Of a DNA stretch of 64,000 bases, positions 30,994-55,997 are shown piece by piece. The notes beneath the pieces were generated by a model, which saw only the letters and a list, made by a program, of their open reading frames with translations, searched no databases and was not told the origin of the DNA. Source of the DNA: Escherichia coli (GTDB taxonomy: Bacteria > Pseudomonadota > Gammaproteobacteria > Enterobacterales > Enterobacteriaceae); assembly GCF_016903815.1 (NCBI RefSeq), contig NZ_CP069973.1; one strand, written 5' to 3'. A program made the translations under genes and the position numbers. Each line of letters starts with the position of its first letter. Position 1 is the first letter of the stretch.

Positions 30994-31001
30994 AACTGCA
31001 T

Positions 31002-31095
31002 AAAAAAATAGAGCCTGTCGACATCCGCCAGACTCTACAGTACACACAGCAGTGCATCCTCGTCTTAAATCCGGCCTGGGGTCCTGGTGGCCGGT
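31002..31095 (-). ncRNA. mcaS: McaS (IsrA) small regulatory RNA
   Basis: Minus-strand sequence matches remembered McaS; terminal hairpin followed by U7. Confidence 0.7.
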
Positions 31096-54925: not shown

Positions 54926-55447
54926 TGAAAATTCCTCAAGTTGGAGAGTTCTGGAACATTAAGGCGAGGTGGCAGTAATGCACCATCTGTAATCTTTTGA
55001 TACTGACGTAATCGGGCCTGATGTGCAACGCCTTGCAAGTATGTAACTCATTGAAAACGATCATTTTTATCTATTGACATCAAATGGCAAACTGTCATTG
55101 TGCGGCTATGGCAAGTGGCAAATGCTTATAAATCATATGGATATAAATAGTACAGAAAGAGTTGTTTTCTCTAGGATATGAGTATACGCCCAATGCTGAT
55201 TGGTTGAATTTTGTTCTTGTTTTAAAGGGTAAGAGTTTAAAGTGTTGGCAGTGATGTATTGGATAGTTAGAATTGCTGTGGGTGCTTGAGGCTATCTGCC
55301 TCGGGCATGAACACCAAAGGTAGATAGAGAAAAGCCCCAGTTAACATTACGCGTCCTGCAAGACGTTTAACATTAATCTGAGGCCATATCTATGCGACAC
55401 ATAGAGATTAGCCTCTTACGGACCGAAAGGTCAAGGAGAAGCAGGCT

Positions 55448-55573
55448 ATGAAGCAGCAAAAGGCGATGTTAATCGCCCTGATCGTCATCTGTTTAACCGT
55501 CATAGTGACGGCACTGGTAACGAGGAAAGACCTCTGCGAGGTACGAATCCGAACTGGCAGACGGAGGCTCTGA
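55448..55573 (+). CDS. Hok/Gef-family type I toxin homolog (HokD-like) with divergent C-terminus
   Basis: MKQQKAMLIALIVICLTVIVTALVTRKDLCEVRIRTG matches HokD N-terminus; frame then ends early (41 aa vs about 51); short upstream ORF ends on the hok ATG. Confidence 0.65.
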   Translation: MKQQKAMLIALIVICLTVIVTALVTRKDLCEVRIRTGRRRL

Positions 55574-55655
55574 TTCGTAGACTACTAATCTGAGTAAAAG
55601 ACCCAGCGGGGAAAGAACCACGCCGGGACTAGTTAATAAGATATTTATAGCGTGG

Positions 55656-55997
55656 CTATTCTTTTTTTGCGGTATAGACTTTTTCGCCTGAGAAGTCTGG
55701 AGCTACCCAAAAGTTAATATTAAACTGAGCATCATCGCTTAGTTCAACACGGTGCCAGTATTGTGGTGGGCTTGTTGCAAAAGCGCCAGCATTAATGACT
55801 ACTTTTATCTCCGGTTCAGTAGCATTCTCATCAGCAAAACCATAATATGTTACAGTACCTTCCATCACGCATAACTGTCCAAAAACACCTGCTGCTGTAT
55901 TATGATGTGTTAATAACGCTGAAGGTACGTTCTCTTTTGTGAAGAACGGAGTTGAGCGTTTGATTACCCAGTCTTTAGGAATTCTCTTGTGTGTCAT
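55656..55997 (-). CDS. YeaR-like DUF1971 protein
   Basis: 113 aa from MTHKRIPKDW; GGGAGGTGG SD; resembles E. coli YeaR pattern. Confidence 0.55.
   Translation of the reverse strand: MTHKRIPKDWVIKRSTPFFTKENVPSALLTHHNTAAGVFGQLCVMEGTVTYYGFADENATEPEIKVVINAGAFATSPPQYWHRVELSDDAQFNINFWVAPDFSGEKVYTAKKE

Follow-up and report, generated by a model that had tools for sequence, protein, structure and literature searches.

A 64,000-nucleotide stretch of Escherichia coli DNA (contig NZ_CP069973.1, referred to here as the window) carries a hok-type toxin-antitoxin cassette that we consider most probably, at a probability of roughly 0.78, to be a disarmed hok/sok remnant that no longer acts as a killer/antidote pair. 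The cassette surrounds a short open reading frame (ORF) at 55448–55573 on the plus strand and, judged by alignment, the locus is a descendant of the hokD/hokW group of prophage hok/sok loci. The well-preserved 5' part identifies the locus as hok/sok, and three groups of observations carry the reading of it as disarmed: the lesions in the 3' end of the toxin gene, the loss of the 3' untranslated region (UTR) that follows it in intact loci, and the published toxicity data for related Hok proteins.

The predicted product of the ORF, MKQQKAMLIALIVICLTVIVTALVTRKDLCEVRIRTGRRRL, is 41 amino acids in length, and its residues 1–37 were identical (37/37) to those of HokD (WP_000813254.1) from K-12-like and other genomes, after which the sequence continues as RRRL and a stop. 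The DNA of codons 1–37 (111 nucleotides) differed from that of HokD by one synonymous change, ACC to ACT. The Pfam model HOK_GEF (PF01848) matched residues 6–39 of the product (59 bits, E=3.4e-16), covering only model positions 1–34 of 42. The N-terminal transmembrane helix with the conserved Hok/Gef residues was present, but the full periplasmic C-terminus, a stretch of roughly 15 residues with conserved E..(A/V)..(Y/C)E in proteins of about 50 amino acids, was absent in both the Pfam match and the alignments, with RRRL in its place. An earlier first-pass annotation of this DNA had described a hok-family type I toxin locus whose 41-residue product has an exact HokD N-terminus, and both statements were borne out by these matches and by an Rfam leader score of 101.5 bits. 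The NCBIfam Hok models were undiscriminating, as even full-length HokD fell below their curated cut-offs. The string RTGRRRL was not found in the searched supplementary files of a Hok catalogue (bioRxiv 10.1101/2025.08.07.668861), which drops as degenerate those coding sequences with fewer than 40 amino acids and those without more than 40 residues aligned in conserved positions; degenerate coding sequences account for a few percent of the unique hok coding sequences in that work.

The tail of the ORF was compared, in alignments that included mafft, with intact hokD loci (AVS0790, WCHEC96200 and K-12-like), hokW-type loci (O157 FRIK2455 and phage 933W) and Rac-SA53. Relative to intact hokD and hokW, these alignments identified at least four separate lesions in the last 15 codons. 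One is a 1-nucleotide deletion at 55553–55560 (plus strand), where intact alleles have ACCGGCCAG and the window has ACTGGCAG; the missing base falls in ACCGG(C/T)CAG, changing GGCCAG to GGCAG, and there is no long homopolymer at this site. Downstream, the GTCGCTGTC of intact alleles has become GCTCTGA, which is two nucleotides shorter, carries substitutions and creates an in-frame TGA. Past this new TGA the ancestral frame 0 resumes with TTC GTA GAC TAC, encoding FVDY, a tail of the hokW type. The codon that follows FVDY, GAA in the intact alleles, is TAA in the window, and a further 3-nucleotide deletion lies before the old hok TAA. The decayed rest of the tail (55571–55597, plus strand) consists of TGA, TTC GTA GAC TAC, TAA for GAA, TCT GAG and the old TAA, and its translation shows the ancestral tail readable in frame behind the stop as FVDY-stop-SE-stop. 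In the alignment, the tail tyrosine codon sits behind the stop and its context is changed from UACG to UACU. A canonical tail that can still be made out, in frame, beyond the stop looks like decay, not redesign. With several disabling lesions and a recognisable ancestral frame, the gene is a pseudogene, or degenerate remnant, by the usual definition.

The lesions were concentrated in the tail. Compared with hokW, the tail had nine substitutions and five indel columns (14/46 changed columns), against one substitution and one indel column in codons 1–37 (2/112 columns), a difference in density with a Fisher p = 5e-7. Among 5,426 complete E. coli genomes we found no intermediate alleles, either with the same tail and an open frame or with the same junction and an intact hok (0 in both classes), and identity to the window locus fell from at least 99% straight to at most 88%. 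The first-pass annotation had offered two interpretations of the altered C-terminus, a recently frameshifted hok or a C-terminal variant. The gene is indeed frameshifted, and insertion of one base after ACTGG does restore QTE, but the repaired frame reads QTEALIRRLLI and a stop rather than the canonical QTEVAVFTAYEPEE; a single-base frameshift was consequently rejected as too simple for a locus with at least four lesions and a missing 3' UTR. Recoding was considered by inspecting the three frames by eye: a -1 shift leads to that same non-canonical tail and a +1 shift to ADGGSDS and a stop, read-through of the TGA adds only FVDY before the TAA, and a Hok tail is restored by none of the three. 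The idea of a C-terminal variant was not upheld, as no intermediate or independent allele was seen among these genomes and the FVDY-stop-SE-stop remainder lies behind the stop.

The second group of observations concerns the sequence beyond the gene. Homology to hok in the window ends, in the alignments, close to the old stop codon. The intact loci all have, after their stop, a 9-bp GC-rich stem-loop, an fbi element and an intrinsic terminator. The 3' stem in these loci is a perfect 9 bp with a predicted energy of -21 to -22 kcal/mol (-26.5 kcal/mol in R1), and fbi (..CCTCAACGCACCCGC), located 366–371 nucleotides from the 5' end, pairs with the 5' tac element at -20.5 to -22 kcal/mol; the minimum-free-energy fold computed for an intact locus has its 5' end paired with fbi. 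In the window, alignments and a duplex search found no homologous fbi at offset 366–371, no perfect 9-bp terminal stem-loop was found and an interrupted helix of -13 kcal/mol occupies its place, and a scan of the plus strand after hok predicted no terminator. A hairpin with a T7 run at 55647–55668 reached only -2.8 kcal/mol.

What replaces the hok 3' UTR is a convergent module with a DUF1971 (TehB N-terminal-like) gene at 55656–56021 on the minus strand, which lies outside the hok system. About 60 nucleotides at the junction (55599–55662) aligned with DNA downstream of DUF1971 in hok-less Rac-like prophages with scores of 32–38, and with hok 3' UTRs with scores of only 14–21, the best of 300 shuffles being 23. 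In other prophages the DUF1971 module adjoins queH or IS3, without hok. Because this stretch aligns better with DUF1971-downstream DNA than with hok 3' UTRs, the interrupted hairpin at 55600–55629 (-13 kcal/mol on the plus strand, in the position expected for the hok 3' stem-loop) is most likely the terminator of DUF1971 on the minus strand. An initial reading of the alignment, in which this hairpin was a decayed hok 3' stem-loop, was rejected as the DNA downstream of DUF1971 in hok-less prophages fits better. On the minus strand the hairpin is followed by TTTT, the complement of the altered hok stop region (TAAGAG to TAAAAG, 55595–55599); the T-run of this probable terminator being the complement of the former hok stop region, the two convergent units share those bases.

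Published mutagenesis provides the third group. In a study of R1 hok (PMC9841398), of the 20 premature stops that a single substitution can produce, 18 appeared among the mutants that had lost toxicity, Y48N and read-through C-terminal extensions abolished toxicity, and so did a C-terminal FLAG tag. The same study reports that 19 of 22 suppressor substitutions in the R1 3' UTR break the terminal stem, that the active truncated hok mRNA was gone in the two terminal-stem mutants tested, and that translation of mok is needed only up to the hok start, that is, for its first 19 codons. A stop-codon construct of R1 Hok was non-toxic in a separate survey in which 42 of 45 Hok constructs were toxic; full-length HokD and an FVDYESEK variant were tested there and are outside the three named as non-toxic (bioRxiv 10.1101/2025.08.07.668861). 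The edited form of HokB depends on its periplasmic Cys46 for dimerisation, depolarisation and toxicity, and in HokC, HokD and HokE the tail cysteine is supplied by TadA editing of the Tyr codon (PMC8309996, PMC12214031).

From the R1 hok and HokB mutagenesis, a 41-residue peptide and an mRNA of the window type are predicted to be non-toxic. The peptide, if made, would be a transmembrane helix without its periplasmic tail, whose Tyr/Cys position is needed for Hok-type toxicity. The hok mRNA would be without the protective 3' stem-loop of the active processed form and without the fbi storage fold. A peptide that lacks the segment for toxicity, together with an mRNA that lacks fbi and the 3' stem, points to the cassette being a disarmed remnant, from which Sok RNA and a short-lived, unstable hok transcript are probably still made as leftovers. 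The 3' third of hok has been destroyed, and the convergent DUF1971 module is joined at the old stop codon. That the lesions cluster so tightly at the junction suggests an origin during the recombination or deletion by which the 3' end was lost, or shortly afterwards, possibly as a single messy event; alternatively, the lesions may have been selected, as they would disarm a toxin that had lost its 3' control. The copies, all identical, fit either origin.

The damage contrasts with the 5' part of the locus, where a promoter-like site, the mRNA leader, mok and a predicted Sok gene were all recognisable. The promoter-like site (55245–55273, plus strand) has TTGGCA and TAGAAT separated by 17 nucleotides, with 10/12 matches in the promoter scan, and ends 7 nucleotides upstream of the predicted transcript start at about 55280, which is also where the Rfam leader model begins. 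The hok mRNA 5' leader (55280–55450, plus strand) matched the full RF01794 model (positions 1–157) with 101.5 bits and E=3e-23, the gathering score being 59; intact hokD scored 106.7, hokW 113.5 and R1-type parB 87.2 bits. Within the leader are the tac 5' end GGGTGCTTGAGG (55280–55291), the mok Shine-Dalgarno (SD) sequence GAGG (55380–55383), 8 nucleotides upstream of the mok frame, the hok SD sequence AAGGAG (55433–55438), all on the plus strand, and the Sok target hairpins. Compared with intact non-K-12 hokD loci, the leader had seven substitutions and two indel columns in 176 columns, and two of the substitutions fall in stems, where both are C-to-T and leave G-U pairs in the hok strand.

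The mok homologue is a 19-codon upstream ORF (uORF), MRHIEISLLRTERSRRSRL and a stop, at 55392–55451 on the plus strand, whose TGA overlaps the hok ATG as ATGA; an identical uORF was present in intact hokD-type loci. This agreed with the first-pass annotation, which had noted a short upstream ORF ending on the hok ATG, and both the reading frame up to the hok start and the coupling layout are, on sequence, those of mok.

The expectation of an antisense Sok gene was likewise supported. In the fold of a predicted Sok RNA (55322–55397, minus strand), 12 unpaired nucleotides form a 5' tail across the mok AUG and are followed by a long hairpin and by UUUUCUCU, the U-rich 3' tail; this RNA matches the annotated sokW misc_RNA of phage 933W, which is on the opposite strand at a position corresponding to about 55330–55398 of the window. 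The predicted fold energy was -28.7 kcal/mol (z = -5.2), compared with -32.7 and -35.8 kcal/mol in intact loci, the hairpin in the window being slightly weaker because of one A-C mismatch. A homologue of the Sok promoter was identified at 55405–55434 (minus strand) by R1-type alignment, with TTGACC (55434–55429), 18 nucleotides and TAATCT (55410–55405). The promoter scan did not call this site, which was below threshold, and its -10 hexamer has 3/6 matches. Its position is what we take to be that of the R1 Sok promoter, the R1-type locus itself carrying no promoter annotation, and we infer the placement by homology only. The antisense Sok gene as such can be placed at this locus with some confidence. 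Overall, an alignment check against hokD-, hokW- and R1-type loci of the kind the first-pass annotation had proposed located mok, tac and the Sok promoter homologue, and fbi was missing. The same annotation had placed the locus in an AT-rich stretch, which is only loosely correct: the upstream flank has 38–40% GC and the hok locus 47%, and the truly AT-rich part (28–33% GC) is at 56000–56900.

The Rfam model requires a caution of its own. In every locus, including R1-type parB, the RF01794 "sok" model matched the hok-sense strand, over the leader up to the hok AUG (332–503 in comparison locus L006, 1513–1684 in L002 and 1513–1687 in L004). As it matches the hok-sense strand, the model is evidence for the leader and the Sok target, not for the direction of Sok. 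Annotation derived from RF01794 would assign Sok to the opposite of its true strand and overstate its length, and the model is unfit to place or orient Sok.

A 451-bp stretch comprising the locus (55230–55680) was 100% identical in about 101–114 of the 5,426 complete E. coli genomes, and the carrier genomes came from humans, dogs, cattle, pigs and water, and from different laboratories, hosts and countries. The exact 41-residue protein is on at least 1,000 public contigs, where it is named "MULTISPECIES: Hok/Gef family protein" (RefSeq WP_001445775.1). The identical locus also occurs in three phage records of about 38 kb, vB_EcoS-666R9, vB_EcoS-673R7 and vB_EcoS-613R10. These phage "complete genomes" (ON470614.1, ON470616.1 and ON470590.1) carry the hok remnant unannotated, which suggests that the Rac-like prophage can still be recovered as phage.

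Several observations weigh against the cassette being a disarmed remnant. The 5' 300 nucleotides of the locus are without any decay, unlike those of a long-dead locus, which implies that the event was recent or that something, perhaps Sok, is still selected. The transmembrane helix is complete in the 41-residue product, which also retains the conserved Cys30, many type I toxins have 41 amino acids or fewer, and the NCBI annotation pipeline puts no pseudogene flag on WP_001445775.1. Two conserved tail residues can be changed individually, by E41A and E49A, in overexpressed R1 Hok without loss of toxicity (bioRxiv 10.1101/2025.08.07.668861). In addition, a sequence at 55691–55708 (plus strand), antisense to the C-terminal codons of DUF1971, is complementary to the 5' end of the hok mRNA, and the predicted duplex (18 nucleotides, 16 pairs, -21.9 kcal/mol) is as strong as a genuine tac/fbi pairing; the minimum-free-energy fold closes the 5' end onto this pseudo-fbi only if the transcript reaches 55708. 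Nine sites of matching strength were found in 128 kb, equivalent to p of about 0.02 for a 300-nucleotide search space, and we regard the complementarity as probably coincidental. It was not adopted as a surrogate fbi as it is non-homologous, lies within the coding sequence of the opposite gene and needs transcription to reach that far.

The undecayed 5' half could also reflect a dead toxin with a live antitoxin, in which Sok, and perhaps the leader transcript, would have been kept to neutralise same-leader hok mRNAs of other prophages, phages and plasmids as a form of anti-addiction or immunity. Such a role would suit the striking difference between an undamaged 5' half and a ruined 3' end, and the survival of G-U pairing in the hok strand at both changed stem positions of the leader. 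The carrier genomes also hold three to four further hokD-like places each, hokD-type loci elsewhere have an identical Sok target, and the anti-addiction idea has been discussed for chromosomal hok (bioRxiv 10.1101/2025.08.07.668861). However, a recent single rearrangement is expected to leave the same pattern equally well, and all of the approximately 100 copies are identical, hence give no signal of selection. Moreover, the change that weakens the Sok hairpin (-28.7 versus -32.7 kcal/mol) and the difference of the Sok 5' tail region from hokW-type loci both speak against a maintained antitoxin. We consider it unlikely that Sok has been retained in this way. If the leftover Sok does act in trans on other hokD loci, the window locus would offer a simple natural test of the type I anti-addiction idea.

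A second possibility is that the 41-residue peptide, a transmembrane helix with the basic tail RTGRRRL, is still toxic to the membrane, and that with Sok and mok coupling it forms a simplified hok/sok pair without fbi storage. In favor of such a pair, nothing is damaged in the promoter, the two SD sites, the mok uORF or Sok, and the ORF itself is open and carries a Hok/Gef annotation. Over 100 genomes, together with the phage records, hold the allele without any change, and the conserved tail residues are, as noted above, individually dispensable in R1 Hok. Yet R1 Hok is inactivated by almost every premature stop and even by Y48N, its stop-codon construct is non-toxic, and the tail cysteine position required in HokB is lost. 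A canonical tail that can still be seen beyond three stops points to decay and not to redesign, the 5,426 complete E. coli genomes yielded no other, independent lineage ending in this way, and the missing 3' stem-loop predicts an unstable mRNA. A toxic short peptide seems to us correspondingly improbable. Even jointly, there is only a small chance that the locus is either a toxin-dead/antitoxin-live module silencing co-resident or incoming hokD-type mRNAs or a new minimal Hok toxin without fbi control.

The first-pass annotation had named a sequencing error in a homopolymer among the outcomes that would undo its claim. The possibility that hokD is really intact and was corrupted in sequencing or assembly has in its favor only the a priori frequency of indel errors and can be dismissed, given the absence of a long homopolymer, several lesions rather than one plus a replaced 3' UTR, and the recurrence of exactly this DNA in over 100 independent complete genomes and three phage genomes.

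Returning to the disarmed remnant, the leader and mok are those of the family and Sok is present by homology, whereas fbi, the 3' stem-loop, the terminator and a complete toxin are missing, and for these reasons the locus should be filed as a degenerate hok locus rather than as a functional hok/sok member or a new toxin variant. It is most probably an unremarkable remnant in decay. Mutation, insertion and rearrangement commonly inactivate hok loci on chromosomes, as described by Pedersen and Gerdes (1999) in the account given in PMC8309996 and PMC12214031, and the window locus adds a further case to the decay already well documented for hok in chromosomes and prophages. Its importance is small for biology and somewhat greater for annotation: as RefSeq names the product "Hok/Gef family protein" without a pseudogene flag, toxin-gene counts are inflated in the approximately 2% of E. 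coli genomes that carry the locus.

The genomic context of the locus is the E. coli ttcA–trkG region with a Rac-type prophage. The prophage genes in the matching RefSeq record are intR, xisR, ralR, recT, recE, kilR, sieB, ydaT and ydaV, followed by a KilA-N gene, hok, the convergent DUF1971, DUF1367, DUF1364, DUF1133 (annotated as antiterminator Q in phage records), lysis genes and trkG. An enrichment of hok in prophages is documented in the literature. Rfam matches elsewhere in the window were RalA (43166–43344, plus strand), FnrS (38739–38856, plus strand) and McaS/IsrA (31000–31095, minus strand), and the RalA match together with ralR in the RefSeq record indicates that the prophage has a second type I toxin-antitoxin pair, RalR/RalA, apparently intact by annotation. 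The DUF1971 ORF encodes 121 amino acids from its first ATG, compared with 113 amino acids (342 nucleotides) in RefSeq and 366 nucleotides in the phage records, and its product matched only the N-terminal, non-methyltransferase part of TehB (47.7 bits versus a cut-off of 303). Between DUF1971 and DUF1367 is an 840-bp gap (56022–56864) of 28–33% GC that contains short ORFs only; within it there was no annotated RefSeq gene and no Rfam match even at E<=1, and copies about 94% identical were present in roughly 350 other E. coli genomes.

The closest known systems include hokD. Codons 1–37 are alike, one synonymous base apart, in K-12 hokD (relF, Qin prophage) and the intact hokD-type loci AVS0790 and WCHEC96200, and in the intact non-K-12 hokD loci the leader, mok uORF and Sok region are nearly identical to those of the window. 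K-12 hokD has the opposite defect: its coding sequence and 3' UTR (stem-loop, fbi and terminator) are intact, and its leader, mok and sok are replaced by relBE; there was no Rfam match to the leader model at that locus. The window locus is a mirror image of K-12 hokD, with the 5' half kept and the tail and 3' UTR lost.

The hokW/mokW/sokW loci of the Stx phage 933W and related O157 prophages resemble the window locus in their niche in lambdoid prophages. The remnant tail in the window (TTCGTAGACTAC..AATCT, FVDY) is of the hokW type, and the annotated sokW maps onto the predicted Sok. In contrast, hokW is intact, encodes 51 amino acids (...QTEVAVFVDYESEK) and has the stem-loop and fbi, and its target for the Sok 5' tail differs from that of the window at several positions. 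In 933W hokW and in Rac-SA53 the same 19 mok codons share the frame of hok and extend it at the N-terminus (725–937 in comparison locus L009 and 2650–2862 in L010), whereas in the window and in hokD-type loci mok is a separate uORF ending in ATGA, a difference that is due to small indels in the leader.

The hok/sok system of R1 parB is like the window locus in its promoter, its tac-ended leader, a mok start within a hairpin and 19 mok codons before the hok ATG, and its Sok, like that predicted for the window, is antisense with a 5' tail, a hairpin and a U-tail. It differs in that mok runs on through hok and that the 3' terminal stem (-26.5 kcal/mol), fbi and terminator are present. R1 mediates post-segregational killing, of which the window locus is most likely incapable. 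The inactivated hokA, hokC and hokE (by insertion sequence (IS) elements) and hokD (by rearrangement), as reported from Pedersen and Gerdes (1999) in PMC8309996 and PMC12214031, share with the window locus the outcome that one part of the system is lost. In the window locus, by contrast, no IS element is inserted and the 5' part is kept; its damage consists instead of clustered small indels, nonsense changes and the replacement of the 3' UTR.

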